A DNA stretch of 64,000 nucleotides, from NCBI GenBank assembly GCA_035499735.1, contig DATJYC010000043.1, forward strand, positions 15,182 to 79,181, read 5' to 3'. The position numbers were made by a program, and so were the translations under genes. The notes under the pieces were generated by a model that was not told the DNA's origin, searched no databases, and worked only from the letters and a program-made list of their open reading frames with translations. Within the stretch, counting starts at the first letter, position 1. Each line of letters opens with the position of its first letter. This DNA is from Burkholderiales bacterium. Lineage in GTDB: Bacteria > Pseudomonadota > Gammaproteobacteria > Burkholderiales > SG8-39. Shown here piece after piece: positions 4,610 through 52,720 of this stretch.

Positions 4610-5571
4610 TCGAGCGTGACGTGCGCGGCCTTGATGACGCGCGCCCAGCGCTCGTGGTCCTTCTTCAGGAAAGCGGCGAACTCCGCGGGCGTGTCGGCGA
4701 TGATGACGGCACCGAGCGCCTTGACGCGCTCGCGCGTCTCGGGCCTGGCGAGGGACTTGCGCATCTCCTCGCTCAGGCGCTCGACGACGGCCTTGGGCGT
4801 CGCCGCCGGGGCAAGCATTCCCACCCAAGGCGCGGTCTCCTCGAAGCCCGGGAACCCGGCCTGCGCCATGGTCGGCACACCCGGGAAATCCGGACGCGGC
4901 CCGGTCGTTCCGATGGCGAGCACCTTGAGCTTCCCCGCCGCGACCTGGTCCGCGATGCCGACGACCGGATAGAACATATAGGTGACGCGGCCCGCCATCA
5001 CCTCGGCGAGCGCAGGCCCGTTCCCCTTGAAAGGGACGCTGAGCATCTTAGTCCCGGTGACGTTTTCGAGCATCGCGCCCGCGAGGTGCGACGAGCCGCC
5101 GATCCCCGGTGTCCCGTAGCTCACTTCGCCGGGCTTCGCCTTCGCGCGCGCCACCAGCTCCCCCACCGAGCCGATCCCCGTCTGCGGGCTCGTCACGACG
5201 ACCATCGGCAGCGCCGCCGCGTTGCTGATGGGCGCGAAGTCCCTGAACGGATCGTAGTGGACCTTGTCGGGCTGCAGGATCGCGTTGACAAGCAGCGACA
5301 GCGAGGAGAACAGCGTCGTGTAGCCGTCCGGCGCCGACTGCGCCACGGCGTCCGTCGCGATGATCGCGTTCGCGCCCGGCCGGTTCTCCACGATGAAAGA
5401 CTGTCCCAGCGACGCCGTCATGTCCCCCGCGACGATGCGCGCGATGACGTCGGTCGGCCCGCCCGCGGCGAAGCCGACCAGGATCCTGACCGGCCGGGCC
5501 GGATAGTTTTGCGCGGCAGCGGCGCCGCAGAGCGCGAGCAGCGCGAGTGAAAGAACCGCCTTTCTCATCAT
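4606..5571 (-). CDS. Bug/TctC tripartite tricarboxylate transporter substrate-binding protein
   Basis: Signal peptide, YPARPVRILVGFAAGGPTD, ENRPGA, PDGYT and C-terminal WARVIK. Confidence 0.93.
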   Translation of the reverse strand: MMRKAVLSLALLALCGAAAAQNYPARPVRILVGFAAGGPTDVIARIVAGDMTASLGQSFIVENRPGANAIIATDAVAQSAPDGYTTLFSSLSLLVNAILQPDKVHYDPFRDFAPISNAAALPMVVVTSPQTGIGSVGELVARAKAKPGEVSYGTPGIGGSSHLAGAMLENVTGTKMLSVPFKGNGPALAEVMAGRVTYMFYPVVGIADQVAAGKLKVLAIGTTGPRPDFPGVPTMAQAGFPGFEETAPWVGMLAPAATPKAVVERLSEEMRKSLARPETRERVKALGAVIIADTPAEFAAFLKKDHERWARVIKAAHVTLE

Positions 5572-6455
5572 GCCTCCGTCGTTTCCGGTTGGAACATCGT
5601 CGCCATGACCTGGCAGCGCTTGATCAGGCGGGGCTCGTCCGGCCCGTAGTCCGCCACCGCGTTGTGTATCGTGCCGATGTCCTCCCACATGAGGACGTCG
5701 CCCTCCCGCCAGCGGAAGGCGTAGCGGTATTCGGCCTTCAGCTGGTGCTCGAAGAGGAACCCGAGCGTGCGCTCGCTCTCCTTCTCCGGAAGCTCGTTGA
5801 TGCGCACCGCGTACCCCGGGTTCGCGTAGAGCACTCGGCGCCCGGTGACCGGGTGGGCGAGGAAGACCGGGTGCGAGACCGGGGGCTTCGCCTTGCGCTG
5901 CGCCTCGGTGAGCGGCGGTCGCTTGCTGCCCTTCTCGCGCCTCATCATCTCCCAGAACTTGTTGAAGTCGTGCAGCACGGTCATGCCCTCGAGATCCCGC
6001 TTCAGCTCCCCGGGCAGGTCCTCGTACGCCGCGTGCATGTTTGAGAACTCGGTGGCGCCCAGCGCCTTCCCGCCGCGCATCGGGATCTTGATCCCGTAGA
6101 GCACGTTCGCAAAGGCGATGGTCCGGCTGTATGACATGTCGGTATGCCAGTCCTGCCCGGCGTCAGCGAGGCCGATCGGCTTGCCGTCCTCGACGATGTT
6201 GGAGAGGATCATCACCTCGGGGATTCCGGGCTCCTGGTAGGCGTTGGCGACGTTGATCTCGAGCTCGCCGAAGCGCCGGGAGAAATCCGCGAGCTGCCTT
6301 CCCGTGAGCTTCTGCGCTGGAAAGCACACCACGCCGCGCTCGCCCAGCGTGCGCACCACGCCGTCGAACTGCTCCCGCGAGAGCGGCCGGGACAGATCGA
6401 GCCCCTCGATCGTCGCGCCCAGCGTCTCCCCGGTGGTCGTCACTTTCATCGGCAT
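5568..6455 (-). CDS. TauD/TfdA family Fe(II)/2-oxoglutarate dioxygenase
   Basis: HxD (WHTDMSY), HPV, WREGDVLMWED, distal His (IHNAV) and Arg (IKRC). Confidence 0.9.
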   Translation of the reverse strand: MPMKVTTTGETLGATIEGLDLSRPLSREQFDGVVRTLGERGVVCFPAQKLTGRQLADFSRRFGELEINVANAYQEPGIPEVMILSNIVEDGKPIGLADAGQDWHTDMSYSRTIAFANVLYGIKIPMRGGKALGATEFSNMHAAYEDLPGELKRDLEGMTVLHDFNKFWEMMRREKGSKRPPLTEAQRKAKPPVSHPVFLAHPVTGRRVLYANPGYAVRINELPEKESERTLGFLFEHQLKAEYRYAFRWREGDVLMWEDIGTIHNAVADYGPDEPRLIKRCQVMATMFQPETTEA

Positions 6456-6461
6456 CGGATT

Positions 6462-7250
6462 CTACGCCAGGCGCACCGCGACGCCTTCGAGCCCGGCGCC
6501 CGCCGCGGGGAAGCGCTTCATGACCAGCGGGTCGTGGCCCGGCACGACGAGCCCGGGCGCGTCCGCGAGCTCGGCGAGCCGCCGCCATCCCGCCACCATC
6601 TTCGGGACGTCGCAGACGATCGGAAAGGGCCGCTTCTCGCCCATGTTGGCGTAGAGATGGCTCGCGTCGGATGCGAGCACCATCCAGCCCGAGCGCGTGC
6701 GGATGCGTACCGCCTGAAGCCCCTCGGTGTGGCCGGCGATGCGGTGCAGCGACACGCCGGGCGCGAGCTCGGCGTCGCCGTCGTGAAAGCGCACCCGCCC
6801 CTTGTAGACCTCGCGGACCATCGCCACGACCTCGTCCACCTCGTAGGCGTGGCTGAAGAACTTCTCCGCCATGTGACGGCCGGTCGCGTACGCCATCTCG
6901 TCGTCCTGCAGGTGGAAGGTCGCGGCGGGGAAGAGACCGAAGTTGCCGACGTGGTCGTAGTGCAGGTGGGTGACGATCACGTCCTTCACGGTCTTTGCGT
7001 CGACTCCGAGGCGCGCGAGGCCCTGCTCGGGCGGCACGAGCGTCTTCCTGCCGCGCCGCGCGCCGACCCCGGCGTCGAATCCCGTGTCGATCACGAAGGT
7101 GCGCGAGGCCGAGCGCCCGAGCCACACGAAGTAATCGAGGTCGCTGCCGGCCTCGTGCGGATCGCCGCCGATGAAGTTCTCGCTCGCCTTGCGGCCCGAC
7201 AGGGTCGCGTACCTGATCGCGAAGACTTCGTAGGTGTTAGAGTTGTCCAA
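6462..7250 (-). CDS. MBL-fold hydrolase, N-acyl homoserine lactonase-like
   Basis: THLHYDHVG, GHTEG, SDASH and PGHD metal ligands. TTG start. Confidence 0.85.
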   Translation of the reverse strand: MDNSNTYEVFAIRYATLSGRKASENFIGGDPHEAGSDLDYFVWLGRSASRTFVIDTGFDAGVGARRGRKTLVPPEQGLARLGVDAKTVKDVIVTHLHYDHVGNFGLFPAATFHLQDDEMAYATGRHMAEKFFSHAYEVDEVVAMVREVYKGRVRFHDGDAELAPGVSLHRIAGHTEGLQAVRIRTRSGWMVLASDASHLYANMGEKRPFPIVCDVPKMVAGWRRLAELADAPGLVVPGHDPLVMKRFPAAGAGLEGVAVRLA

Positions 7251-7324
7251 GCGTTGCTGCGGCTCCCTTCCCGCTCGGAGCCAGTATAGCTAGGATGAGA
7301 GCGGGAAGCCTGAACGGAGGGGGG

Positions 7325-9100
7325 ATGGGACAGACGCTCGAGCACGGCCTGCGCCTCGCGCCGGCGCAGGTCGACGTCGTGCGGCGCGCCGACGGCACGA
7401 CGCTGCTGCGCTCGCCGCAGCCGCTGTCGCGCCACGCGCGCGCGGTCGGCGAGTGGCTGGTGAGTTGGGCGGCCGAGACCCCGGAGCGCTGCTTCCTCGC
7501 CGAGCGCCAGGGCGACGCGTGGCGCAAAGTCGGCTACCGCGAGGCGCTCGCGCTCGCCCGCCGCATCGGCCAGGGGCTACTCGCGCGCGGCCTCGACGCC
7601 TCGAAGCCGGTCGCGATCCTGTCCGACAATTCGATCGATCACGCCCTGCTCGCGCTCGGCGCGATGCACGTGGGCGTTCCGGTCGCGCCCATCTCGCCCG
7701 CCTACTCGCTGATGTCCAGAGACTTCGCCAAGCTCAAGGCCATCTTCGGGCTGCTCAAGCCGGGCCTCGTCTGGACTTCCGATCCGGAGAAGTTCGCGCC
7801 GGCGCTCGCCGCGGTCGGCGGGAGCGCCACCCCGCTCGCGGAGCTGCTCGCGCGCGCCCCCGGCCCCGAAGTCGACCGGGCGTTCTCGCGCATCGGGCCG
7901 GAGACGGTGGCGAAGGTCCTGTTCACCTCGGGGTCGACGGGCACGCCGAAGGGCGTGATCAACACCCACCGCATGCTCGCCGCGAACCAGGAGCAGTACG
8001 CGATGGTGTGGCCGTTCCTCGAGGAGCTGCCGCTCGTGCTCGTCGACTGGCTGCCCTGGAACCATACCTTCGGCGGCAACAGCAATTTCTTCATGATGCT
8101 GAGGAACGGCGGGACGATCCACATCGACGCGGGCAAGCCCGCGCCCGGGCTCGTCGAGACGAGCGTGCGCAACCTGAAGGAGGTCTCGCCGACGATGTAC
8201 TTCAACGTGCCGCGCGGCTTCGACCTGCTGCTCCCCTTCCTCGAGCGCGACGCGGAGCTGCGGAAGAGCTTCTTCCGCGAGCTCGAGTGGATGGTGTACG
8301 CGGGCGCAGCGCTGCCGCAGAACCTGTGGGATCGCATGCAGCAGCTGGCGCTCGCCGAGCGCGGCACGCGGCTGCCGCTGATCTCGGCCTGGGGCTCCAC
8401 CGAGACCGCGCCGCTCGCGACCTGCGTGCACTACCCGGTCGACCGCGCCGGCATCGTCGGGCTCCCGGTTCCAGGCTGCGAGCTCAAGCTCGTGCCCTCC
8501 GCCGGCAAGCTCGAGGTGCGCGTAAAGGGCCCGAACGTCACCCCGGGCTACTTCGGGCGCGACGACCTCACCCGCGCCGCGTTCGACGAGGAAGGCTATT
8601 ACCGCATCGGCGATGCCCTCAAGTTCGCCGATCCCAGGCGCCCCGAGCAGGGGCTCGCGTTCGACGGCCGAACGGCCGAGGACTTCAAGCTGTCCACCGG
8701 CACCTGGGTGCACGTCGGCGCGACGCGCATCAGGCTGATCGCCGCAGGCGACCCGCTCATCCAGGACGCGGTGATCACCGGCCACGGGCGAGCCGAGGTA
8801 GGCGCGCTCATCTTCCTCAACGCCGCGGCGGTGAAGGCGATGGGACTGGACGCGGACGCAGTGCGCGCGCGCCTGCTCGCGGCGATGCAAAAGCTCGCCA
8901 CGGAGACGGGCTCGGGCAGCTCGACGCACCCGGTGCGCGCGCTCGTCGTGGCCGATCCGCCCTCGATCGACGCCAACGAGATCACCGACAAGGGCTACAT
9001 CAACCAGCGCGCGGTGCTCGAGCGGCGCGCTGCGCTGGTCGAGGCGCTGCACGCCGATCTGCCGGGCGCCGAGGTCGTCCTCGCGCCGGCGCACAAATAG
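7325..9100 (+). CDS. fcs: Feruloyl-CoA synthetase-like acyl-CoA ligase
   Basis: AMP-binding FTSGSTGTPKGV, DWLPWNHTFGGN, FDGRTAEDFKLSTGTWV and EITDKGYINQRAVL, typical of Fcs/HcaC. GGAGG RBS before ATG 7325. Confidence 0.88.
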   Translation: MGQTLEHGLRLAPAQVDVVRRADGTTLLRSPQPLSRHARAVGEWLVSWAAETPERCFLAERQGDAWRKVGYREALALARRIGQGLLARGLDASKPVAILSDNSIDHALLALGAMHVGVPVAPISPAYSLMSRDFAKLKAIFGLLKPGLVWTSDPEKFAPALAAVGGSATPLAELLARAPGPEVDRAFSRIGPETVAKVLFTSGSTGTPKGVINTHRMLAANQEQYAMVWPFLEELPLVLVDWLPWNHTFGGNSNFFMMLRNGGTIHIDAGKPAPGLVETSVRNLKEVSPTMYFNVPRGFDLLLPFLERDAELRKSFFRELEWMVYAGAALPQNLWDRMQQLALAERGTRLPLISAWGSTETAPLATCVHYPVDRAGIVGLPVPGCELKLVPSAGKLEVRVKGPNVTPGYFGRDDLTRAAFDEEGYYRIGDALKFADPRRPEQGLAFDGRTAEDFKLSTGTWVHVGATRIRLIAAGDPLIQDAVITGHGRAEVGALIFLNAAAVKAMGLDADAVRARLLAAMQKLATETGSGSSTHPVRALVVADPPSIDANEITDKGYINQRAVLERRAALVEALHADLPGAEVVLAPAHK

Positions 9101-9116
9101 CATGAAGGAGAAAGCA

Positions 9117-9938
9117 ATGGCATTGCCGAAGTTCGAGACTGTCAAGGTCGACGTCGCCGAGAACATCGCCTGGCTGACGATGAACCGCCCGGAGAAGCGC
9201 AACGCGATGACGCCCCGGATGCACGAGGAGATGATCGTCGCCCTGGGCGAGCTCGCCGTCTCCCCGGAGGCCGGGGTGCTGGTGCTCACCGGCGCGGGCG
9301 AGAGCTGGAGCGCAGGCCAGGACATCGACCTCTTCTTCCGCGACCTCGACGACAAGCCGGTGAAGAAGCGCCGCGCGCTGTACGCCAGCCAGGAATGGCG
9401 GTGGAACCAGCTCGCGCACTTTCCCAAGCCGACGATCGCCATGGTGAACGGCTACTGCTACGGCGCCGCGTTCACTCCGCTCGTCGCCTGCGATTTCGCG
9501 ATCGCCGCCGAGGACGCGAAGTTCGGACTGTCGGAGATCAACTGGGGGATCCTGCCCGGAGGGCTCGTCTCCAAGGTGATGCTCGACGCGTGCAGCTACC
9601 GCGACGCCAAGTGGTACGCGCTCACCGGCGAGCCCTTCGACGGCCGGGTCGCGGAGAAGATCCGCCTGGTCAACTACGCCGTGCCGCGCGCGCAGCTCCG
9701 CGAGGAGACGGTCAAGCTCGCAAGGACGCTGCTCGCCAAGAACCCGCAGGTCTACAAGTCGGTGAAGGAGGTCATGCACCACATCCGCGGCATGGACGTC
9801 GAGCAGGCGACCGACTACCTGAGGGCGAAGGAAATGGAGATGCGCTTCATGGACCGCGAGGGCGGGCGCGCCAAGGGCATGAAGCAGTTCCTCGACGACA
9901 AGACCTACCGCCCGGGGCTGGAGACCTACAAGCGCTGA
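9117..9938 (+). CDS. ech: p-hydroxycinnamoyl-CoA hydratase/lyase (HCHL)-like crotonase
   Basis: NRPEKRNAM, FGLSEINWG and C-terminal GMKQFLDDK.Y.PGL.TYKR match the HCHL subfamily. Active-site Tyr changes are described under findings. Confidence 0.82.
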   Translation: MALPKFETVKVDVAENIAWLTMNRPEKRNAMTPRMHEEMIVALGELAVSPEAGVLVLTGAGESWSAGQDIDLFFRDLDDKPVKKRRALYASQEWRWNQLAHFPKPTIAMVNGYCYGAAFTPLVACDFAIAAEDAKFGLSEINWGILPGGLVSKVMLDACSYRDAKWYALTGEPFDGRVAEKIRLVNYAVPRAQLREETVKLARTLLAKNPQVYKSVKEVMHHIRGMDVEQATDYLRAKEMEMRFMDREGGRAKGMKQFLDDKTYRPGLETYKR

Positions 9939-11125
9939 TGTCCGCTCCCCTGAAAGGCATCCGCGTCCTCGAGCTCGGCCAGTTCATCGCGGGCCCGTAC
10001 GCGGGGCTGCAGCTCGCCGACCTCGGCGCGACGGTGATCAAGATCGAGCGGCCGGACGGCGGCGACGCCTTCCGCGCGTTCGGCTTCGCCGAGAACGCGA
10101 AAGGCTACAGCCACAACTTCTGCGCTTTCAACCGCAACAAGCTGAGCGTCGCTCTCGACGTCAACTCTCCGCGCGGGCGCGAGGCCTTTCTGAGGATGGC
10201 GCGGCAGGCGGACGTGGTGCTGGAGAACTTCCGCCCGGGCGTGATGAAGCGGCTGGGATTCGACTACGGATCGCTGAAGGCTGCCAATCCGCGGCTGGTC
10301 TACTGCTCGATCAGCGGCTTCGCCGAGGACGGTCCCTACGGCGACCGCCCCGCGTACGATGCCGTCGGCCAGGCGCTTTCCGGGCTGCTCTCCCTCTTCG
10401 TCGACCCCAAGGATCCGCGCACCCTCGGGCCGACGCTCTCCGACCAGATCACTGGCATGCAGGCATGCATGGCGGCGCTCGCGGCGCTCTACGAGCGCGA
10501 GCGCACCGGCAAGGGCGCGCGCGTCGAGGTGACCATGGTCGAAGCGAGCATGGCGCTGATCCCCGATTCCTTCACCGCGTATACGCACGCGGGTCACGTG
10601 ATGCAACCCGAGTCGCGTGCCGCCGTTTCCCTCTCCTTCGCTTTCGCCTGCGCGGACGGCAAGCTCATCGCCATCCACGTCTCGTCGATGGAGAAATTCT
10701 GGAAGGCGCTGCTCGCGGCGGTCGAGCGTCCCGACATCGGCGAGGACGCGCGGTTCCGCGACCGCATGGGCCGGATCAGGAACTACCACGCGCTGGTCGA
10801 GACGCTGCGTCCCGTCTTCGCCGCAAGACCCCGTGCCTACTGGGCCGAGCGGCTCGCGGCGCACGACGTTCCGGCGGCCGTGGTGCATTCGATCCCGGAG
10901 GCGATCGAGGAGCCCGAGGTGAAGTACCTCGGAATGCTGCACGAGCTGACCCACCCGCGATACGGAAAACAGATCGCAATGCGGCGCGCCTCGAGAATCG
11001 ATGGCGAGCGCGAGTCCCAGCCTCTCCCGCCGCCGGCGCTCGGCGAGCATACGGATCAAGTCCTGCGCGAATTCGGCTTTGCGTCCGATGAGATCGCAGA
11101 GCTGCGCGCAGGCAGTGCTGCTTGA
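9938..11125 (+). CDS. Family III CoA-transferase (CaiB/BaiF)
   Basis: LKGIRVLELGQFIAGPYAG, NRNKLS, ENFRPG, DRPAYD and PPALGEHT. TGATG overlap with the upstream gene. Confidence 0.92.
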   Translation: MSAPLKGIRVLELGQFIAGPYAGLQLADLGATVIKIERPDGGDAFRAFGFAENAKGYSHNFCAFNRNKLSVALDVNSPRGREAFLRMARQADVVLENFRPGVMKRLGFDYGSLKAANPRLVYCSISGFAEDGPYGDRPAYDAVGQALSGLLSLFVDPKDPRTLGPTLSDQITGMQACMAALAALYERERTGKGARVEVTMVEASMALIPDSFTAYTHAGHVMQPESRAAVSLSFAFACADGKLIAIHVSSMEKFWKALLAAVERPDIGEDARFRDRMGRIRNYHALVETLRPVFAARPRAYWAERLAAHDVPAAVVHSIPEAIEEPEVKYLGMLHELTHPRYGKQIAMRRASRIDGERESQPLPPPALGEHTDQVLREFGFASDEIAELRAGSAA

Positions 11126-12036
11126 AGCGCAGAACTTCCAGGAAGCTCGCAGTCGGCAGCGCTGCCCTGCTCTCCGCAATGATCACTGGTTGCGGGGGTG
11201 CGGGCGGCAGCGGGTCGAGTTCCGAATCTAACCCCACCCCAGCGTACAACTTTGTCGCCGACAGCGGCGTCCGGGTAGCGGGCGGAATCGGGCCGGTGGA
11301 GCTCGTAGTGGGCACAACGACGTATATGTACGTCGGCATCGGCGGCACCGCTACGGTCCTGGCATCGACCGACGGACTCGCGTTCACGACGGTACAGGCG
11401 ACCGTGGACGGCGGTCCCCTCATCTCGGGGGCCTGGTTTTCGTTCGTCGCGCTTCCCAGCGGAGGCTACCGCATGTATTTTGCCCGGCTGCTGGGTTCGC
11501 TCCTGAGCGCCACCTCGACGGATGGGCTCACATGGACGAGCGAGCCGGGCACACGAGTCGTGCTCAGCAATATCGCCGTGCCGAAGGTCGTCGCTCTCCT
11601 CGGCGGGGGCTATCGCGTGTACTACACGACTTCAGGAGGCCCGACGGGAATCGCGAGTGAGACCTCGAGCGATGGGCTGAACTTCACCGCGGATGACGGT
11701 CTTCGCCTTTCGCCGGTTCCCAAGAACCACGAGTGGGGAGATCCAAACGTCGTCGTCAGCGGCGGGACCTACCTGATGTCCGCGACGCAAGTACCTTCGG
11801 ACCATGTGTCATATTCGAGCATCTGGCTTTCCTCGTCTGCGGACGGAGTCACCTGGACAGACCCGATCCCGATCATCTCGAACCCGGGGGGCAGCCCCGT
11901 CGATTCGTCCTTCGCACCGCTCTCGAACGGGGCGTTCCGGGTCTACCACGGTCTTTTCCTGAACGCGCCTGCCGGACCGAACACCGGGAACGCGCAGAGC
12001 GAGATCCTCAGCGGCGTGCTCACCCCCGCTTCCTAG
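11122..12036 (+). CDS. Secreted lipoprotein with repeated Asp-box-like (S-x-D-G-x-x-W/F-T) beta-propeller blades
   Basis: Basic N-terminus and lipobox-like ITGC. Four repeats: STDGLAFT, STDGLTWT, SSDGLNFT, SADGVTWT. TTG start overlaps the upstream TGA. Confidence 0.68.
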   Translation: MKRRTSRKLAVGSAALLSAMITGCGGAGGSGSSSESNPTPAYNFVADSGVRVAGGIGPVELVVGTTTYMYVGIGGTATVLASTDGLAFTTVQATVDGGPLISGAWFSFVALPSGGYRMYFARLLGSLLSATSTDGLTWTSEPGTRVVLSNIAVPKVVALLGGGYRVYYTTSGGPTGIASETSSDGLNFTADDGLRLSPVPKNHEWGDPNVVVSGGTYLMSATQVPSDHVSYSSIWLSSSADGVTWTDPIPIISNPGGSPVDSSFAPLSNGAFRVYHGLFLNAPAGPNTGNAQSEILSGVLTPAS

Positions 12037-12043
12037 CCGGATC

Positions 12044-13195
12044 ATGGATTTCGCCTTCACCGAAGAGCAGCGCATGATGCGCGAGTCCGTTCGCAAGCTC
12101 ATGGACCGCATCGCGACGCCCGAGTACGTGCGGCGCCTGGACCGCGAGCAGGCCTACCCCGAGGAGCTGTACTCGGCCTGGGTCGACCTGGGGCTGCTGC
12201 GCGTGCCCTTCGAGGAGAAGTACGGGGGCCTCGGCGGCAGCGTCATCGACCTGATGATCGTCGCCGAGGAGATCTCGAGAAAGAGCGCCGACTTCTTCAT
12301 GGCCTACGCGGGCAGCGTGTTCTGCGCGCTCAACGTCGCCCGCAAGGGCTCGGAGGAGCAGAAGCGCCGCTGGCTTCCCAGGGTCCTGTCGGGCGAGATC
12401 AAGATGTCGATCTCGATGTCCGAGCCCGAGGCCGGCTCGGACGTCGGCGCGATGAAGACGGGCGCGCGCCGCGAAGGCGCCGACTGGGTCATCAGCGGGC
12501 AGAAGCTCTGGGCGACGGGCGCGGGCGCCCGCGGCAACGTCATCAACGTCTACGTGCGCACCGACCCGCAGGCGAACATCCGCCAGGGCATGTCGCTCTT
12601 CCTCGTCGACAACGACGCGAAGGGCCTCACGCTGCGGAAGCTCGACATGCTCGGCCGCCGCTGCACCGGCACCTACGAAGTCTTCTTCGACGGCGTGCGG
12701 GTTCCGGCAGATCGCCTCGTCGGAGGCGAGAACAGGGGCTGGGACTGCATTCTCGCGGGGCTGCAGGCCGAGCGCATCACCTCCGCCGCCGGCAATGTCG
12801 GGGCCGCGCAGGCCTGCCTCGACCTCGCCGTCGAGTACTCGAAGGAGCGCAGGCAGTTCGGGCGCGCCATCGGAACCAACCAGGCGATCGCCCACCTGCT
12901 CGCCGACATGGCGGCGGAGATCGAGGCCGCGCGCGCGCTCACCTGGCGCGCGGCGTGGATGGCCGCGACCGGGCAGGACGCGCTGCGCGAGATCTCGATG
13001 GCGAAGCTCTTTTCCTCCGAGGCCTACGTGAAGTGCGCCAACCTCGGCATGCAGGTCTTCGGCGGCTACGGCTACAGCATGGAGTACGACATGCAGCGCC
13101 ACTACCGCGACGCGCGGGCGGCGACGATCGCCGCGGGCACGTCGCAGATGCAGCGGAACATCATCGCGGGCCTGATGGGCCTGAAGGTCGGCTAG
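12044..13195 (+). CDS. Acyl-CoA dehydrogenase
   Basis: MSEPEAGSD, GQKLWAT, RRQFGRAI.NQAI, MQVFGGYGY and TIAAGTSQMQR. Confidence 0.93.
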   Translation: MDFAFTEEQRMMRESVRKLMDRIATPEYVRRLDREQAYPEELYSAWVDLGLLRVPFEEKYGGLGGSVIDLMIVAEEISRKSADFFMAYAGSVFCALNVARKGSEEQKRRWLPRVLSGEIKMSISMSEPEAGSDVGAMKTGARREGADWVISGQKLWATGAGARGNVINVYVRTDPQANIRQGMSLFLVDNDAKGLTLRKLDMLGRRCTGTYEVFFDGVRVPADRLVGGENRGWDCILAGLQAERITSAAGNVGAAQACLDLAVEYSKERRQFGRAIGTNQAIAHLLADMAAEIEAARALTWRAAWMAATGQDALREISMAKLFSSEAYVKCANLGMQVFGGYGYSMEYDMQRHYRDARAATIAAGTSQMQRNIIAGLMGLKVG

Positions 13196-13804: not shown

Positions 13805-15949
13805 TCAGAAATCCCAGCGGTATCCCGCGGAAAAGAAGTAACGATGTGTAACCTCCTGGAGGAAGGCGCTGCTCGTGTTCGTGTTCTCGATGCCGGCCTC
13901 GAGCTCCAGGGTGATGCTGTTGCGCCAGCGCCAGCTCGCGCGGCCCACCGGCGAGACGCGCTGGAGGGTGCTGCCGTCGTCGTTCTTCTGCCCGTACCAG
14001 AGCACCGCGCCGTCGAAGGTCCAGCTCGCGCCCACGGGGAAGCGGCTCGTGAGCTGGCCCGCCAGCCCGTGGTACGTGTCCGCGGTCACGCCGCTCACCG
14101 AGACGACGGTGACGTCGCGCGTCGCGAACACGCCCGTGCCGATCGCCTGGCTGGTGAGCGTCTTGATGTAGCCGCTGCCGGGCGTCGCGGGATAGTTGGG
14201 AGTTGCGTTCGTGTGGGAAATGCGCGTCACCTGGGCATTGAGGCCGAGCTGCCAGACGGAGGTCACCGGGTGCGTAAAGCCTCCGTATGCGATCGCCGAT
14301 TGCGCAGTCACATCCCGAGCCTGCTGACGCAGCTCGTCTTCGGTATAGATCGTGAGCAACTGGCGGATCGACGTCGTGGGCGCGCCGATGATCGCGCTCG
14401 TGGTCTGCAGCGACGGGGTCATGCGGTAGTCGAGCAGCATATTGAACGAGGTCTTCCACGGCGCGATCCAGTTCCCCTGCGCGGTCGCGATGTTGAGGTG
14501 GCGGAACAGCGTGTCGTAGTCGACCACCGACGAGAAGTACCCCTGAGGCGTGAAGTAGCGCGCCTCCGCGCCGACCGCGTCGCGGTCGGCGATGCCGTCC
14601 ACGGTCTGGCGGAACACGTAGACGTTCCCGCTCCAGCGCTGGTTGAAGGGCCCCAGCTCGGCGCTCGCCCCGTAGAAGCGCTGCACCGAATCGATGGTGA
14701 AGCCCGGCACGACCGGCTCGCCGGCGGCCAGGTTGAGCCGCGCGCTTGAGGTGAAGCCGTACCCGAGCAGAGCGCCGTCGAAGCGGCCGGGGAGGCCCGC
14801 GCTGTTGCCGGGCTGCCGTCCCAGGCGCGCGGAGGCGCTGGCGGGCTTGTACTTGTAGTCGTAGTAGGCCTGGTCCAGGCGGTTGATGCTTTCCTGTCCG
14901 GCGATGAAGTTCCGCGTGTTGACGTCCCGGAACACGATGCGGTTTTCGTGCGCGTCGTTCATAAAGCGCGCATTGAGATCGGCGCTGGTGATGAGCGCCG
15001 ACTGGTCGACGACCGAGAGCGTGGTCCGGTCGAGGGCGTTGGGCCCGAGCGGCTGGGAGTCGATCTTGCTGTTCCCGTGATAGTAGAACTGCGACAGGCC
15101 TCCGCTGACGAACGAGCGCCAGCCCTGCTGGGGCTCGGTGGGCGGGCGCAGGACCTCCGCCTGCGGCGCGGCGGCGAGGCTCGCAAGCCGCTGGCGCACG
15201 CGCACCGAGTCCTCGCCTTCCGGATATTTCTTCAGGTAGTTCTCGTACTCGGTCCTCGCGCGGGCGGTGTCTCCGCGGCGCTCGTAGGAAAGAGCGAGAA
15301 ACTCCTGCGCGTCGCGCGTCAAGGCGTTCTGGGGCAGCGCGAGCAGCTGCGTGAACGCGCGGATCGCAGCGGCGTAGTCCTCGCGCACGATCGCGCCGCG
15401 GCCATCGGCCATCAGCGCCTCGGGTGAGCCGGCGGGCGCGGGAGCCGCGGGCGGGGCGGCCGGCTGCGATGGCTCGGCCTGAGCCGACGGAGCGGGCGCC
15501 GGAGGCGTCGCCGCGGGCGCCGGAACCGCCGCGGGGGGCGCCGCCGGGCGCGGAAGCAACGCCGCCGCGGGCGGAGCGTCGGCCTTGGCCCGCGAAGTCT
15601 TCTCGAGGTTGTCGCGCTCCTGCGGGTGGACCTGGACGACGCGCGCCTCGCGAAAGCTCGCGGCGAGCTGCCGCCTCGCGCTCTCGGCGTCCCGCTGCGT
15701 GCCGAAGAAGCCCATGCACAGCTGGTAGCTCACGTTGCTTCCCGACCTCAGCACCCGCCAGTAGAGCGTGTTCCTGCGCAACGAGGCCGGGATCGGAGTG
15801 CTCGGGCGGTCCGCGACGTTCTTCACCGTCGCCAGCGCGACCACGTAGAGATCGGGCGCCGGAGCTTGGGCGCGGGCTTCCTGCGCAAGCAACGCGAGCG
15901 CGGCCAGCGCGGCGACCGCCAGGCCTCCCCTTAGGCCGGTTCTTGTCAT
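13805..15949 (-). CDS. Outer-membrane beta-barrel with N-terminal SPOR-like domain, Pro/Ala linker and TPRs (putative porin of a porin-cytochrome conduit)
   Basis: Signal peptide; SPOR-like YQLCMGFFGTQRDAESARRQL; TPRs (REDYAAAIRAF, YENYLKKYPEG); about 450 aa of amphipathic strands ending AGYRWDF. ATGA-coupled to the upstream gene. Confidence 0.8.
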   Translation of the reverse strand: MTRTGLRGGLAVAALAALALLAQEARAQAPAPDLYVVALATVKNVADRPSTPIPASLRRNTLYWRVLRSGSNVSYQLCMGFFGTQRDAESARRQLAASFREARVVQVHPQERDNLEKTSRAKADAPPAAALLPRPAAPPAAVPAPAATPPAPAPSAQAEPSQPAAPPAAPAPAGSPEALMADGRGAIVREDYAAAIRAFTQLLALPQNALTRDAQEFLALSYERRGDTARARTEYENYLKKYPEGEDSVRVRQRLASLAAAPQAEVLRPPTEPQQGWRSFVSGGLSQFYYHGNSKIDSQPLGPNALDRTTLSVVDQSALITSADLNARFMNDAHENRIVFRDVNTRNFIAGQESINRLDQAYYDYKYKPASASARLGRQPGNSAGLPGRFDGALLGYGFTSSARLNLAAGEPVVPGFTIDSVQRFYGASAELGPFNQRWSGNVYVFRQTVDGIADRDAVGAEARYFTPQGYFSSVVDYDTLFRHLNIATAQGNWIAPWKTSFNMLLDYRMTPSLQTTSAIIGAPTTSIRQLLTIYTEDELRQQARDVTAQSAIAYGGFTHPVTSVWQLGLNAQVTRISHTNATPNYPATPGSGYIKTLTSQAIGTGVFATRDVTVVSVSGVTADTYHGLAGQLTSRFPVGASWTFDGAVLWYGQKNDDGSTLQRVSPVGRASWRWRNSITLELEAGIENTNTSSAFLQEVTHRYFFSAGYRWDF

Positions 15950-16413
15950 TCTTTGTTGTCGGTGCTCGGGGTGCGCTTGTTTTCGTCGGGTGCAATCGGG
16001 AAATCGAGCAGCAGGCTGCGGCGGTCTTCGCCGAGGCGCACGTGGCTGCGGACCGGGCGCTCGTACTGGATCAGGATGCAGACCGGGTTCGGCACGGGCT
16101 CGCACCTCGGGTCGAGGGAGACCCTCACCGTGAAAGGAGGAATGGCGCCGTCTCCCCGGAAATACTTCACCTCGTCGGGAAACGGCGGCTCGCCCGGCAA
16201 AAGCGGGGCGAGCGCCTCGAGCTGCACGTTCACCAGCTCGCCGTTCTTCGACGCGTAGTCGCGGATGTAATGGACAGGGCCGGTGAGCCGCACCCTGACT
16301 CGCGGCACCGCGTCGCCTCTCTCAACGGCGATCTCGTCGATGACCGCGGCGAGCACGGGCGGAGAGGCCAGCGCCGCCCAAGCCAGAAGCGCTACGCATG
16401 AGATGCAACGCAT
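15946..16413 (-). CDS. Small secreted accessory protein, possibly AMIN-like
   Basis: Signal peptide, beta-rich IDEIAVERG...VRVRLTGPVHY...RSLLLDF, one Cys pair. Lies within the cytochrome-porin operon. Confidence 0.62.
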   Translation of the reverse strand: MRCISCVALLAWAALASPPVLAAVIDEIAVERGDAVPRVRVRLTGPVHYIRDYASKNGELVNVQLEALAPLLPGEPPFPDEVKYFRGDGAIPPFTVRVSLDPRCEPVPNPVCILIQYERPVRSHVRLGEDRRSLLLDFPIAPDENKRTPSTDNKE

Positions 16414-16420
16414 GCGGCTT

Positions 16421-17248
16421 TCAGCTCGTCCAGCGCGTGTAGGTGGAGCCCTGATTGCCCAGCGGCCTGTGGCAGCCCGAGAACGAGCAGTCGGGTCCGG
16501 TGCCGTCATGGTTGAGCGTGTTCTTCTGCATGCTTCCCAGATAAGGCGAGTTCCTCAAATGGCATGTGCTGCACTGGCCAGAGCCGTTCCCGAGACTGCT
16601 GTTGTGGTTCATCCGCTCCGCGGTGAAGGTCGTCGTGCTGGTGTGGCAGGCGTCGCAGCCCAGGCTCGCACCGTTGAGCAGCGCGGTCTTGTAGGGAATG
16701 TGGTTGGAGGGCATGGCGAGGCCAGGTCCCCCAGGGGTGTGACAGGTCTCGCAGCTTCCCGCAGCGACACCGTTGTGGTTGAACCCGGCCGGCACCCACG
16801 CCGCTGTGCGATGGCAGCTGTCGCAGGACGCAGTAGTTACCAAGTGGTTCGCCGGCTTCCCGGGCGCGAAGAAGCCGGTGTGGCAGGTCGTGCACGTCCC
16901 CGGCGCGACTGTCGCGTGGTTGTAGCGCGCGCCCTGCCAGGTGGCCGCGGAGCGGTGGCAGTTGTTGCAGGCCTCGTTCGTCTGCACGTGATTGGCGGGC
17001 TTGAAGGTCGTGGCGATGCGGCTGCCCGGGCGGTGGCAGTACTCGCACTGCCTGGGCGTGCCCGCCATCTGTCCGCCGACGTGGCAGTTCTCGCAGGGCG
17101 TGACTGCGTGCACGCCGGTGAGCGGGAACGTCGTGCGCAAGTGGTCGAAGGTGCTGCGGCCGCCCTGCGCGAACGCTGCGCCCGCGTTCAGCAGCACGGC
17201 GCCGAAAGCGATCAAGCGCGCCAGCCGAATGCCGTGTCCGGAGTCCAT
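16421..17248 (-). CDS. Multiheme c-type cytochrome (8 CxxCH plus 1 CX4CH)
   Basis: CENCH, CEYCH, CNNCH, CTTCH, CDSCH, CETCH, CDACH, CSTCH and CSFSGCH; signal peptide. Confidence 0.92.
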   Translation of the reverse strand: MDSGHGIRLARLIAFGAVLLNAGAAFAQGGRSTFDHLRTTFPLTGVHAVTPCENCHVGGQMAGTPRQCEYCHRPGSRIATTFKPANHVQTNEACNNCHRSAATWQGARYNHATVAPGTCTTCHTGFFAPGKPANHLVTTASCDSCHRTAAWVPAGFNHNGVAAGSCETCHTPGGPGLAMPSNHIPYKTALLNGASLGCDACHTSTTTFTAERMNHNSSLGNGSGQCSTCHLRNSPYLGSMQKNTLNHDGTGPDCSFSGCHRPLGNQGSTYTRWTS

Positions 17249-17261
17249 GTTGTTTCTCCCC

Positions 17262-18848
17262 TCACTGGAACAGACGCCCTGCGCCTCCCGACTTGATGGT
17301 CTTGAACGTGCTCGTGACGTGGCAGCGCTCGCAGACGGGCCCGAAGCCGCCGTTGTGGATGTCCTGCTCCGCGTGGCAGTCCGCGCAGGTGCTGGCGAGT
17401 TTGAGCTTCCCCTGCACCGGGAACCGGTGGCAGGCCAGGCAGTCCAGCCCGCGGTGCTTCCCGTCGAGGACGAAAGCGGTGCGCTTGTTGTGGTCGAAAT
17501 CCCACTGCTTCCAGCTGCGCGGGTTGTGGCATTGCTCGCACGCCATCCCGAGCTTCAGCTTGTGCTTGTCGTCCTTGCGGTGGCACGAGTAGCAGTCGGT
17601 CTTGGCGTCCTTGAACTGCGGCGTCGTGTGGCAGTCCTTGCAGGCGACCTTGGCGTGCCGGCCGAGCAGCGGGAAGCGCGTGAGTCCGTGATCGATGCGG
17701 CTCTGCTTCCAGCTCGCATCGTTGTGGCACGACTCGCACTGGGCTCCGAGCTGCCCGTTGTGCTTGTCGTCCTTCCTGTGGCACGCGATGCAGGCCGTCG
17801 CGAGCTTCTCCCTGTAGACGAATCCCTTGTGGCAGCTGACACAGGTAATCTGCGCGTGCTTGCCGCGCAGCGGATAGCGCGTGACCAGGCCGTGGTCGAA
17901 GATCGTGGCCTTCCAGTCTCTCTCGACGTGGCAGCTGTCGCACTTGTCTCCGAAGCGACCCTGATGCCCCTTCTTGTCGTCGTCCTTCTTGTGACAGGCG
18001 ACGCACGTCGTGGGCGTCTTCTCCTTGTAGAGCATGCCGGTGTGGCAGGCGTCGCAGCGGACGAACTGGTGCCTGCCCTTCAGCTCGAACTTCGTATCGC
18101 GTGCATGGCTGAACCGGGTCGTCTTCCACGCCATGTCGGTGTGGCAGGTCTCGCACTTGGCGCCGAACCTGCCGCGATGCCCCTTCTTGTCGTCGTCCTT
18201 CTGGTGGCAGGAGACGCAGGCGAGCGGAGTTCCCTTGAAGTCCTGCGTCTTGTGGCAGGACTCGCAGGCGACATCCGAGTGGGCGTTCCGCAGCGGGAAC
18301 TTCGTCTTGCTGTGGTCGAAGCGCGTCTGCTTCCACGAGATCTCGGTGTGGCAGTTGACGCACTCTGGGCCGAGCTTGCCCTTGTGCTTGTCGTCCTTCT
18401 TGTGGCACGCGTTGCAATCGTGCGCTGTGTTGCGGTACTTGACCGTCGGCACGTGGCAGGAGGCGCACTCGACCTTGGTCGAGGCGTGGGCGCCCTTGAG
18501 CAGGAAGTCGGTCTGCTTGTGGTCGAAGGTCCTGGAGTTCACGGGAGCGATGTTCGCCTTTCGCCCCTTGTGGTCGGTGTGGCAGGCGCGGCAGTCCCGG
18601 TCGGGCATGCGTCCGTGGTAGCGCCGGTGCTGCGCGACGTCGGCGGCGATCTCCTTGTGGCAGTCGAGACACTGCGTGCGCTGCCCGGCCCGGTTGAAGC
18701 GCACGTGGCAGTTCTTGCACTCGCTCTCCCACTTGGCGTGCCCCTCGATGACCTGGCCCGGCATGACCGCAGTCTCCAGGCTCTGCGCGAAAGCGCCCGG
18801 GACGAGCAGCAGGAGGAGCCATCCGGTGACCTTCGCTCGTCTCGACAT
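17262..18848 (-). CDS. 21-heme periplasmic c-type cytochrome
   Basis: I counted 21 CxxCH motifs. Signal peptide MSRRAKVTGWLLLLLVPGAFA. Start placed at ATG 18848. Confidence 0.95.
   Translation of the reverse strand: MSRRAKVTGWLLLLLVPGAFAQSLETAVMPGQVIEGHAKWESECKNCHVRFNRAGQRTQCLDCHKEIAADVAQHRRYHGRMPDRDCRACHTDHKGRKANIAPVNSRTFDHKQTDFLLKGAHASTKVECASCHVPTVKYRNTAHDCNACHKKDDKHKGKLGPECVNCHTEISWKQTRFDHSKTKFPLRNAHSDVACESCHKTQDFKGTPLACVSCHQKDDDKKGHRGRFGAKCETCHTDMAWKTTRFSHARDTKFELKGRHQFVRCDACHTGMLYKEKTPTTCVACHKKDDDKKGHQGRFGDKCDSCHVERDWKATIFDHGLVTRYPLRGKHAQITCVSCHKGFVYREKLATACIACHRKDDKHNGQLGAQCESCHNDASWKQSRIDHGLTRFPLLGRHAKVACKDCHTTPQFKDAKTDCYSCHRKDDKHKLKLGMACEQCHNPRSWKQWDFDHNKRTAFVLDGKHRGLDCLACHRFPVQGKLKLASTCADCHAEQDIHNGGFGPVCERCHVTSTFKTIKSGGAGRLFQ
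17319..18527 (-). repeat. Six intragenic tandem tri-heme repeats of about 70 aa
   Basis: Each unit reads (F/I)(D/S)H-x-T-x-F-x-L-x-G-x-H...CxxCH...CxxCH...DD-x-H...CxxCH...W (one unit has N for G; the last lacks DD and W). DNA such as cccttcttgtcgtcgtccttct recurs near 17968 and 18181. Confidence 0.88.
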
Positions 18849-18853
18849 GAGCC

Positions 18854-19843
18854 TCAATACATGTGCACGTAGACCACATGGACGATCGCGCTGAATACCA
18901 GCATGAAGACGAAAGGAACGTGCAGGACGTGCCACAGGGAGAACAGGCGCTCGTAGGTGCGGAACTGGGCGACTTCCTTCAGCTCGCGCATGTAGCCCTT
19001 CAGGATCCGCCGCGCGACGCGGATGCGATGGCTGCGCTCGCCGCGAGGCCAGTTGCGCTCGCTGGCGGCGCGCGACAGGATCCGGCCGACGTCCCGCATG
19101 CTGCGCCAGTAGACGTAGCGGGTGCGCACCGTGAGCGCGAGAAACCGCCGCACGCCGAGCAGACCGAGACGGGTCTGGTCGGCGGCGTACGCTTCCAGGT
19201 CCTTGAGGCGCTGCTCCACGCTGGGCGCAAAGTGGAATTTCGACTTTAGCGACTCGCCCTGCAGGCCCAGGTGCTCCTGGCGCTCTCGCAGCGTGGCCTG
19301 GCGGCCGTAGAGGCCGTGGTGGATCTTGGTGTAGATGAAGCGCCCGATGATTCCGCTGCCCGCGACGATCAGCATGCTGTAGAAGGCGACGGCGGCGTTG
19401 AGCGAGCCGATCCTGAGCGTGGAGTGGTACAGGATCAGGACCGGCCCGGCGATCCCGAGGAACATGTGCACCTTGAACCAGTGCCGGAGCTCCCCGGCCC
19501 GCTGAAGGAAGCGCACGCGCTTGCGCAGGGGATACAGGAGCAGCAGCAGCATGAAGATCGAGCCGACGAGGCCGAGGTTGTAGCCGAGATCGGAGCCGGG
19601 GGTATACAGCTCGGCGCGGCCGGCAAGCCAGGCGCCCGCGGCGAGAACGATCGCCACGAGCCAGATCGCCGTGACCGGCAGGGGGCGGGCGTCCCCGCGA
19701 CGCTCCGACCCCGCGTGCGGGCGCGGGCCCGCCGACCGGCGCTCGACATCGTATGCGGGACTCACCGGGGACGACACAGGTCTGCTCGGACGATTGGTCG
19801 ACGCGGAAGGAGTGCCATTGTCATCTGGACGGCGCACGGCCAT
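18854..19843 (-). CDS. Inner-membrane His-rich protein, cytochrome b/ferric-reductase-like transmembrane module
   Basis: Hydrophobic helices with His residues: WFKVHMFLG...LYHST and WHVLHVPF...IVHVVYVH. First gene of the cytochrome operon. The true start is uncertain and may be downstream of 19843. Confidence 0.78.
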   Translation of the reverse strand: MAVRRPDDNGTPSASTNRPSRPVSSPVSPAYDVERRSAGPRPHAGSERRGDARPLPVTAIWLVAIVLAAGAWLAGRAELYTPGSDLGYNLGLVGSIFMLLLLLYPLRKRVRFLQRAGELRHWFKVHMFLGIAGPVLILYHSTLRIGSLNAAVAFYSMLIVAGSGIIGRFIYTKIHHGLYGRQATLRERQEHLGLQGESLKSKFHFAPSVEQRLKDLEAYAADQTRLGLLGVRRFLALTVRTRYVYWRSMRDVGRILSRAASERNWPRGERSHRIRVARRILKGYMRELKEVAQFRTYERLFSLWHVLHVPFVFMLVFSAIVHVVYVHMY

Positions 19844-43895: not shown

Positions 43896-44555
43896 TTACC
43901 AGTGCGCCGGGAGGCGCTTGTGGACGCGGATCTGCTTGGCGTCGACCGAGATGTAGCCGCCCGCTGTGAGGTCCTTGACGATGCGGTTCACCATCTCGCG
44001 CGAGCCGCCGATGCGCTCGGCGATGTCCGACTGGGTCAGGCGCTCGGGGACGATGCGCGCACCGTCCTGATCGACCGCGCTCTCGTCGATGAACTTGGCG
44101 AAGCGTCCGTAGACGTCCTTGAGCGCCAGGTCGCGGACCTGCTTGACGAGGCTCCGCGTCTTGGCGATCAGCATGTGGATCAGGTGGCGCGCGAACAGGG
44201 GGTTCTTCGCGAGGAGCTGCTCGATCTCGCTCATCGGGATAACGAAGCAGCGGCAGGGCTCGAGCGCCATCACCGACGCCGAGCGCGGGCCCCCGTCGAG
44301 CACGAGCTCGCCGAAGTAGCTGCCCTCGCGCATGGTGGAGAGCACCACTTCCTTGCCGTCCTCGTCGCTCACGTAGACCTTGACGCGCCCGGCAAGCAGG
44401 ACATAGAGCGAGTCGGTCTCGTCGCCCTCGGTGATGATCACCGCGTTCTTGGGGTAGGAGCGCGCCGTGCCGTGCGGGGCGAGGTCCTTGAGCGCGTCCT
44501 CGCCCAGGGTGGCGAGCGGTCCGATGCCCATCGATACGGCCTGTGACAGCGACAT
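43896..44555 (-). CDS. Crp/Fnr family transcriptional regulator
   Basis: cNMP-binding domain (GSYFGEL...PRSASV) and HTH (LTQSDIAERIGGSREMVNR). No Fnr Cys cluster. Confidence 0.93.
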   Translation of the reverse strand: MSLSQAVSMGIGPLATLGEDALKDLAPHGTARSYPKNAVIITEGDETDSLYVLLAGRVKVYVSDEDGKEVVLSTMREGSYFGELVLDGGPRSASVMALEPCRCFVIPMSEIEQLLAKNPLFARHLIHMLIAKTRSLVKQVRDLALKDVYGRFAKFIDESAVDQDGARIVPERLTQSDIAERIGGSREMVNRIVKDLTAGGYISVDAKQIRVHKRLPAHW

Positions 44556-44662
44556 GGGACCCCCCAGGAGTGCTTGAGGCTGAATTCTGGCACGGCCCGC
44601 GCCGCTTGTGCAGAGGCTTCGTCCGGGCGCAACATGACGGCTCCTCCAGGGGGAGAAAACGC

Positions 44663-50304: not shown

Positions 50305-50308
50305 CCGT

Positions 50309-52621: not shown

Positions 52622-52720
52622 GAGTCCCCCTTGCGAGTTGTTTGACGTTCTTGTTGTGCTACGACGCCGGATGCCGTTGGCATGACGGGCGGTACGTGGC
52701 TACTATAGTTCAGCCCACTT

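Follow-up and report, generated by a model that had tools for sequence, protein, structure and literature searches.

A non-canonical member of the hydroxycinnamoyl-CoA hydratase/lyase family with Phe and Arg at the phenol-binding tyrosine positions, encoded next to a family III CoA-transferase

The gene at positions 9117 to 9938 (+ strand) of a 64,000-nucleotide stretch from a Burkholderiales metagenome-assembled genome (MAG; assembly GCA_035499735.1, contig DATJYC010000043.1, positions 15,182 to 79,181; this whole stretch is called the window below) encodes a crotonase related to 4-hydroxycinnamoyl-CoA hydratase/lyase (HCHL). The canonical Tyr75/Tyr239 pair is absent from the protein, which has Phe73 and Arg236 instead. 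By homology the protein belongs to the HCHL family; going by the residues of the phenol clamp, it is not an established 4-hydroxycinnamoyl-CoA hydratase/lyase. On balance, we favor the reading that it is an active, non-canonical member of the family with a rebuilt distal pocket, which would act as a hydratase and retro-aldol lyase on a non-canonical, possibly anionic, substituted acryloyl-CoA within a CoA-recycling cycle. The acid that it cleaves is probably not ferulic acid, because both tyrosines are replaced and a CoA-transferase is its constant partner.

Identity of the Gene and Residues of the Pocket

The 273 amino acid translation of 9117-9938 contains SAGQDIDLFFRD, ATDYLRAK, and LSEINWG. 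In a phmmer search of PDB chains, the top match was the HCHL of Pseudomonas fluorescens (2j5i/2vss/2vsu, E = 4e-90), with the HCHL/FCHL entries 6l3o, 6p5u, and 7xwc below it. The alignment spans residues 5-273 of the query and 7-276 of the HCHL chain; its one gap is a single residue long and is distant from residues 75 and 239. The query shares 55% identity with lyase-competent HCHLs and is colinear with them, the C-terminal region included. It scored 372.4 bits against the NCBIfam HCHL equivalog NF006588 (cut-off 276) and matched the Pfam family ECH_1 (PF00378) at 1e-43. We placed the start codon at 9117, not at 9102, because of the Shine-Dalgarno box that precedes it; the N-termini of homologues begin at the same relative position. 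The gene and the codons discussed below are the following.

9117..9938, + strand: HCHL-family crotonase gene, non-canonical Phe/Arg member, 273 aa (PDB, NCBIfam, and Pfam matches)
9105..9110, + strand: Shine-Dalgarno box AAGGAG, 6 nt ahead of the ATG at 9117 (read from the sequence)
9333..9335, + strand: codon TTC, Phe73, at the position of HCHL Tyr75 in MDLKEYFRE (PDB alignment)
9459..9461, + strand: codon of Tyr115, at the position of HCHL Phe118, in the loop by the oxyanion hole (per-clade residue table)
9534..9536, + strand: codon GAG, Glu140, at the position of the catalytic Glu143 of HCHL in LSEINWG (PDB alignment)
9753..9755, + strand: codon of Tyr213, a clade-specific tyrosine at the position of HCHL Leu216 (per-clade residue table)
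9822..9824, + strand: codon AGG, Arg236, at the position of HCHL Tyr239 in EDYLYAK (PDB alignment)

Tyr75 and Tyr239 of HCHL presumably bind the 4-hydroxyl of the substrate, a role that we take from the structural work on 2VSS. Tyr239 is reported to be needed for HCHL activity, and the phenol group of the substrate probably contributes to catalysis.

A sequence-only reading of the gene, made by comparison with P. fluorescens motifs, had proposed the changes Tyr75 to Phe and Tyr239 to Arg together with retention of the catalytic glutamate. The structure alignment, which is gapless around both sites, bears out the numbering and both substitutions, and Glu140 aligns with Glu143. The P. fluorescens motifs that it used, MDLKEYFRE and EDYLYAK, match those of the PDB chain. 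Comparison with the HCHL of Ralstonia solanacearum gave the identical two substitutions. HCHL Ser123 corresponds to Thr120 of the query, a conservative change. By homology, Arg236, Tyr115, and Tyr213 would face the substrate, and a low-confidence model suggests that Tyr213 may lie near residue 236, on the neighboring helix of a hairpin.

A Clade with Phe at Position 75 and Arg or Lys at Position 239

We calculated a FastTree phylogeny of 190 family members from which columns 75 and 239 had been masked; the sampling was centered on the query. Sequences with Phe at position 75 and Arg or Lys at position 239 form a clade of 38 rows with a support of 99 and with identities of about 70% or more. 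A Phe/[Leu-Phe] clade (65 rows, support 97) is sister to it, and the node joining the two has a support of 99. The canonical Tyr/Tyr sequences are placed elsewhere, outside this pair of clades. The same picture was obtained from a collection of 5.8 billion proteins: none of the best 120 relatives carries Tyr/Tyr, all 29 relatives with at least 70% identity carry Phe and Arg or Lys, and the next group, at 62-64% identity, carries Phe and Leu.

Within the clade, position 75 is Phe in 38/38 members and position 239 is Arg or Lys in 38/38. Arg and Lys replaced one another at least four times, and there was no switch to an uncharged residue. Relatives use AGG, CGG, or CGC for Arg at this position and AAG for Lys. 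The pairwise ratios of nonsynonymous to synonymous substitution rates (dN/dS) against relatives are 0.09-0.19, and the gene is under purifying selection. The fixation of Phe and Arg/Lys in all 38 members, the use of three Arg codons, and the low dN/dS values argue that the substitutions are not due to chance.

Other pocket positions also set the clade apart. Of all the clades, only Phe/[Arg-Lys] has Tyr at HCHL position 118, where the others have Phe or Met; Tyr at position 216 is present in 38/38 members, and in 29/29 of the set with at least 70% identity, with Leu in the sister clade and others; and Ala at position 120 is specific to the clade. The catalytic Glu143 is invariant in all 190 aligned family sequences. 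The sister clade is hydrophobic at three sites (Phe118/Leu216/Leu239), so that a polar, cationic triad at 118/216/239 in one clade contrasts with a hydrophobic triad in the other. Because the sister clade is fully hydrophobic there, we think that these sites probably set specificity and do not reflect drift.

The sequence-only reading had described the tyrosines as lost. Their absence is clear; the direction of change was overstated, because position 239 varies by clade (Y, N, M, A, S, G, L, K, or R in this query-biased sample) and Tyr/Tyr proteins are a small minority of the query-centered sample. As far as these sequences go, the tree does not distinguish gain from loss of the tyrosines.

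Gene Context in the Window and in Relatives

The gene lies in an operon with the following members.

7295..9100, + strand: Fcs-type AMP-forming acyl-CoA synthetase, 601 aa (Pfam AMP-binding)
9938..11125, + strand: family III (CaiB/BaiF) CoA-transferase, 395 aa (Pfam CoA_transf_3, 1e-111)
11122..12036, + strand: lipoprotein-like open reading frame (ORF) between the CoA-transferase and acyl-CoA dehydrogenase genes, 304 aa (lipobox-like ITGC)
12044..13195, + strand: acyl-CoA dehydrogenase (ACAD), 383 aa (Pfam Acyl-CoA_dh N, M, and C domains)

The stop codon of the HCHL-like gene and the ATG of the CoA-transferase gene overlap by 1 nt (TGATG at 9936-9940). The nearest PDB relatives of the CoA-transferase are the formyl-CoA transferase-like entry 10uh, SUGCT, and YfdE, and its best NCBIfam match is succinate-glutarate CoA-transferase; its nearest characterized relatives (SUGCT, YfdE, and formyl-CoA transferase) use dicarboxylates. 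The Fcs-like ligase shares 46% identity with the Ralstonia feruloyl-CoA synthase along its entire length and scored 760 bits against NCBIfam PRK12582, just under the cut-off of 777. The ACAD scored below every NCBIfam cut-off. By Pfam and NCBIfam annotation, none of the genes of the operon encodes a 3-hydroxyacyl-CoA dehydrogenase, a thiolase, or an aldehyde dehydrogenase.

The surroundings of the gene were compared in 26 related loci, drawn from both genomes and metagenomes, with counts limited to loci that had enough flanking sequence. The search for a Phe/Arg clade and its gene context, which the sequence-only reading had proposed, yielded both the 38-row clade described above and a constant partner: the CoA-transferase gene comes immediately after the HCHL-like gene in 18/18 loci. 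An ACAD gene was found within 6 kb downstream in seven of 12 loci, and an Fcs-like ligase upstream in just five of 17. Several relatives have a Peripla_BP_6 binding protein between the ligase and the HCHL-like gene; this protein resembles uncharacterized LIV-type proteins of Burkholderia and is related only distantly to the binders of lignin aromatics (E = 8e-23).

The combination of an HCHL-like gene with a CoA-transferase gene, with or without an ACAD gene, recurs in other non-canonical clades, and the identity of the partners declines with the divergence of the HCHL-like protein. Phe/Leu loci contain aldehyde dehydrogenase, HCHL, and CoA-transferase genes, the last 51% identical to that of the window. 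In Phe/Ala loci the order is HCHL, ACAD (59%), TctC, and CoA-transferase (45%). Three Tyr/Met loci from metagenomes contain IclR | HCHL, CoA-transferase (47-53%), ACAD (62-64%), TctC, and a UbiD-family decarboxylase, which suggests that the aldehyde or acid product is decarboxylated by a prenylated-FMN enzyme. Seven Tyr/[Ser-Gly-Ala] loci carry HCHL, ACAD, and two family III CoA-transferases (about 30%); genes for several NMT1/THI5-type binding proteins and for a GNAT acetyltransferase flank them. Canonical Tyr/Tyr genes are followed by an aldehyde dehydrogenase gene; in Ralstonia the order is MarR | ech-vdh-fcs.

The 304 amino acid ORF is missing from all related loci. It had no Pfam or NCBIfam match, its GC content at third codon positions (GC3) is lower, at 0.77, and it has four copies of the motif S-x-DG-x-x-[FW]-T, which recall Asp-box beta-propellers. 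A 2.5-kb contig of another run bridges positions 9874-12370, and peat contigs of about 94% identity span both junctions of the ORF. The ORF is a genuine insertion and lies outside the conserved module. In three loci of the Phe/Lys part of the clade, a Tll0287-like/HAMP sensor protein occupies the place of the ACAD after the CoA-transferase, and in two further loci two extra genes are inserted between CoA-transferase and ACAD. This junction looks like a hot spot for insertions.

Source Genome and Distribution

The window comes from a MAG of 3.74 Mb that is 96% complete, with an estimated contamination of 4%, and whose closest relatives are uncultured soil Burkholderiales. The operon DNA was near-complete in seven wetland-metagenome runs. 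A relative of the operon with about 94% identity is present in a peat run, and peat runs match about a quarter of the sampled words. None of the listed runs matching the operon was RNA. In a search of 400 genomes from the order and 400 from the class, members of the clade turned up only in the genus of the window, and a plasmid collection returned only relatives with less than 60% identity, canonical ones such as that of Ralstonia.

A second HCHL homologue was not found in the source genome. The genome encodes PobA (672 bits, cut-off 539) and six LigB-family dioxygenase genes, which rules out the idea that it lacks aromatic ring catabolism; an intradiol dioxygenase was not found in it.

Proposed Reaction

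In the reaction sequence that we favor, the family III CoA-transferase would convert a 3-substituted acrylic or propionic acid to its CoA ester. The most economical donor would be the acetyl-CoA freed by the lyase, and its use would conserve CoA and energy. Where present, the Fcs-like ligase could prime the cycle with ATP, and the ACAD could desaturate a saturated propionyl side chain. The HCHL-like enzyme would then hydrate the enoyl-CoA using Glu140 (Glu143 of HCHL) and Thr120 (Ser123), and the resulting 3-hydroxyacyl-CoA would be split by retro-aldol cleavage into acetyl-CoA and an aldehyde, as expected from homology. The substituent recognized would not be a 4-hydroxyphenyl group held by a Tyr/Tyr clamp. 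The conserved positive charge and the two clade-specific tyrosines suggest a distal group that is anionic or strongly polar, such as a carboxylate, a sulfonate, a sulfate ester, or a phenolate.

Several observations fit an anionic substrate, which the sequence-only reading had suggested with the Arg as partner of the charge: the conserved Arg/Lys cation with its two tyrosines, the dicarboxylate-type relatives of the CoA-transferase, the lack of an aldehyde dehydrogenase in the operon, and the TctC receptors nearby. Candidates that would fit are the mono-thioester of a dicarboxylate and carboxy- or sulfo-substituted aryl acrylates. A more specific proposal, which we put forward tentatively and with clearly less confidence than the general one, is that an anion-directed retro-aldol lyase and its coupled CoA-transferase form a two-enzyme, ATP-free, CoA-recycling cycle. 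Such a cycle would remove acetate from the acrylate or propionate side chains of doubly charged acids, with Arg/Lys239, Tyr118, and Tyr216 forming the anion site. Its candidate substrates would be dicarboxylate mono-CoA esters, converted to oxo-acids or semialdehydes, and the carboxy-, sulfo-, or sulfated aryl-acrylates of peat and wetland matter. If true, C2 units would be removed here in a way that differs from both beta-oxidation and the canonical vanillin pathway.

A link to sulfophenylcarboxylates (from linear alkylbenzene sulfonates) was considered and set aside: the genome paper on Comamonas KF-1 names no enzyme for the hydratase/lyase step, and the likeness is one of analogy only.

Alternative Explanations

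The sequence-only reading had suggested a different substrate, and this part of it gained indirect support: the trait is fixed in a well-supported clade with a Phe + Leu sister, there is no vanillin dehydrogenase in the operon, and the CoA-transferase is the invariant partner. Some points limit the case for the reaction proposed above. The AlphaFold2 model calculated from an alignment of 20 clade sequences was poor (pLDDT 53, pTM 0.56). All loci with context are close relatives (84-95% identity) that belong to a single genus-level group of Burkholderiales from soil and wetland, so that synteny alone is weak evidence. The choice of acetyl-CoA as the CoA donor is a guess. The Fcs-like ligase, the Peripla_BP_6 proteins of the relatives, PobA, and the LigB-type dioxygenases would all fit an ordinary phenylpropanoid substrate. 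The enzyme might accordingly still be a hydratase/lyase for hydroxycinnamoyl-CoA, or part of a dihydro-hydroxycinnamate pathway, that clamps a phenolate with Arg/Lys239 and Tyr118/Tyr216 and acts on p-coumaroyl-, feruloyl-, or caffeoyl-CoA. The NF006588 score above the equivalog cut-off, the ligase immediately upstream, the status of the gene as the sole HCHL homologue in a genome with a bona fide PobA and six LigB-family dioxygenases, the two tyrosines gained by the clade, and the origin from a wetland metagenome, a habitat with abundant plant phenolics, all speak for a phenolic substrate. We nevertheless doubt it, while counting it as the most serious of the alternatives. Both canonical phenol ligands are missing in every member of the clade, and the neighboring vanillin or aldehyde dehydrogenase gene of canonical clusters is absent here. 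The ligase occurs in a minority of loci, whereas the CoA-transferase is invariant, and the hydrophobic residues of the sister clade at 118/216/239 argue for a role of these sites in specificity.

Hydration without cleavage, which the sequence-only reading had also entertained, came out as less likely. Water would be added to the enoyl-CoA with no C-C bond cleaved, and enzymes encoded elsewhere would handle the product. Generic crotonase chemistry requires just the retained glutamate, the assistance of the phenol group to catalysis would be missing, and the changes M70Q and G120A are located near the oxyanion hole. However, no 3-hydroxyacyl-CoA dehydrogenase or thiolase is found in or beside the operon of the window or of the relatives, and for this reason we favor a lyase over an enzyme that only hydrates. 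The identity and colinearity with lyase-competent HCHLs extend through the C-terminal region, and Glu143 is invariant in all clades. In addition, related ACAD-CoA-transferase pairs occur together with a lyase encoded by a gene of its own, and this points to cleavage as the task of the module. We regard hydration alone as unlikely. That the gene is decaying or misassembled and its substitutions meaningless is refuted. Apart from the estimated contamination of the MAG, no support for it was found; against it stand an intact reading frame, a good ribosome-binding site, a GC3 of 0.91, the dN/dS values, and the conservation of Phe and Arg/Lys in 38 relatives from many samples. Independent contigs from other metagenome runs match the HCHL-like gene with 0-1 differences.

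Comparison with Known Systems

The HCHL (Ech) of P. fluorescens AN103 (EC 4.1.2.61; 2J5I/2VSS/2VSU) has a crotonase fold of the same length as the query, colinear over residues 5-273, with Glu143 kept and the C-terminal tail GMKQFLDDK...PGL..YKR in common. From this enzyme to the query, the differences are Tyr75 to Phe, Tyr239 to Arg, Met70 to Gln, Phe118 to Tyr, Gly120/Gly121 to Ala, and Leu216 to Tyr; WGIPPGN reads WGILPGG, and the partner genes differ too. On the megaplasmid of R. solanacearum OE1-1, the fcs-ech-vdh cluster likewise has an Fcs-type ligase (46%) beside an HCHL-family gene (54%). That cluster includes an aldehyde dehydrogenase and MarR, whereas the window has the translationally coupled family III CoA-transferase instead, and the ligase is dispensable among relatives. 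The fcs-ech-vdh logic is also found in Pseudomonas and in the hca genes of Acinetobacter, which include the acyl-CoA dehydrogenase hcaD for dihydro acids.

A further comparison is with the uncharacterized sister clade (with members in Amorphus coralli, Pigmentiphaga humi, and Paenochrobactrum gallinarii, among others), which shares 62-64% identity, Phe75, Gln70, and a CoA-transferase gene (51%) that follows. It differs in Leu239, Phe118, and Leu216, in having Val-Gln for Thr-Pro at 123-124, and in the aldehyde dehydrogenase gene upstream in the two loci seen.

Family III CoA-transferases also take part in thioester recycling in carnitine metabolism (CaiB/CaiD) and with FldA (cinnamoyl-CoA:phenyllactate CoA-transferase). 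In such cycles the transferase is accompanied, as in the gene set of the window, by a crotonase or dehydratase, an ACAD-type enzyme, and a priming ligase, and the CoA ester is restored with no use of ATP. The ligase, crotonase, CoA-transferase, and ACAD of the window parallel caiC, caiD, caiB, and caiA. However, the two sets are not orthologous: the CaiB model scored 121 bits (cut-off 413), the model for crotonobetainyl-CoA dehydrogenase (CaiA-like) 202 (cut-off 540), and the best family of the window's crotonase is HCHL, not CaiD.

A cluster on plasmid pOT10-1 of Roseomonas sp. OT10, known from annotation only, has an ACAD (61%) and a CoA-transferase (47%) similar to those of the window and looks like a pathway that desaturates, hydrates, and cleaves. 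There, a generic crotonase is responsible for hydration and a CitE-family lyase for cleavage; in the window, one HCHL-type enzyme would do both. The same plasmid region (NZ_CP087720.1 144453-163601) contains a unit of ligase, HCHL-like (Phe/Phe), and TctC genes. An operon 6 kb away encodes the CitE-like lyase, ACAD, CoA-transferase, and enoyl-CoA hydratase, with an Asp/Glu-racemase-family gene. In the literature searched, we found no paper on tyrosine-lacking HCHL clades or on modules that pair HCHL with a CoA-transferase.

Other Genes in the Window

Two genes are located upstream of the ligase gene and divergent from it.

5568..6455, - strand: TauD-family dioxygenase (Pfam TauD)
6462..7250, - strand: small metallo-beta-lactamase (MBL)-fold hydrolase (Pfam Lactamase_B)

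The nearest PDB relatives of the TauD-family protein are taurine dioxygenases and RdpA; those of the MBL-fold protein are glyoxalase II or lactonase-like. An FMN-dependent 2-hydroxyacid dehydrogenase gene is also upstream and divergent. The TauD and MBL genes flank the HCHL-like gene in many but not all close relatives and do not do so in other clades. We left these three genes out of the module because their linkage fades beyond the close relatives. The annotated starts of the MBL-fold and ligase genes are only about 44 bp apart (7250-7295); one start may be miscalled, or the promoters may overlap.

Downstream, positions 13805-18935 (- strand) encode a 766 amino acid protein resembling tetratricopeptide repeat (TPR) proteins, followed by two multihaem c7/c3-type cytochromes c (275 and 557 aa). 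This set is conserved behind the module in MAGs of related Burkholderiales and is unusual for the order; it may serve extracellular or periplasmic electron transfer. Farther away, two beta-propeller genes of the pyrroloquinoline quinone (PQQ)-dependent alcohol/aldehyde dehydrogenase type flank a TonB-dependent receptor gene; the coordinates of this set are 44492-46339 (+), 48103-50358 (-), and 50891-52699 (-).

Significance

The window adds to the HCHL family a Phe/[Arg-Lys] clade with conserved charge, the accompanying changes to Tyr118 and Tyr216 set against a hydrophobic sister clade, and a retained Fcs-like ligase. In databases, the protein and hundreds of its relatives are named "p-hydroxycinnamoyl-CoA hydratase/lyase" or "vanillin synthase." NF006588 also accepts proteins that lack one or both of the phenol-binding tyrosines, and because clades without the tyrosines pass, the model does not discriminate between substrates. 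The names given by JGI and NCBI (vanillin synthase, HCHL) are over-specific, and this is likely a case of systematic over-annotation.

If these clades use other acids, the potential for phenolic and lignin degradation deduced from counts of "ech/HCHL" in soil and wetland metagenomes would be overestimated. The HCHL-like genes, together with family III CoA-transferase genes and with or without ACAD genes, would represent an uncharacterized family of CoA-neutral modules that clip side chains. Positions 239, 118, and 216 would then amount to a simple specificity code, usable for engineering aldehyde-forming lyases.

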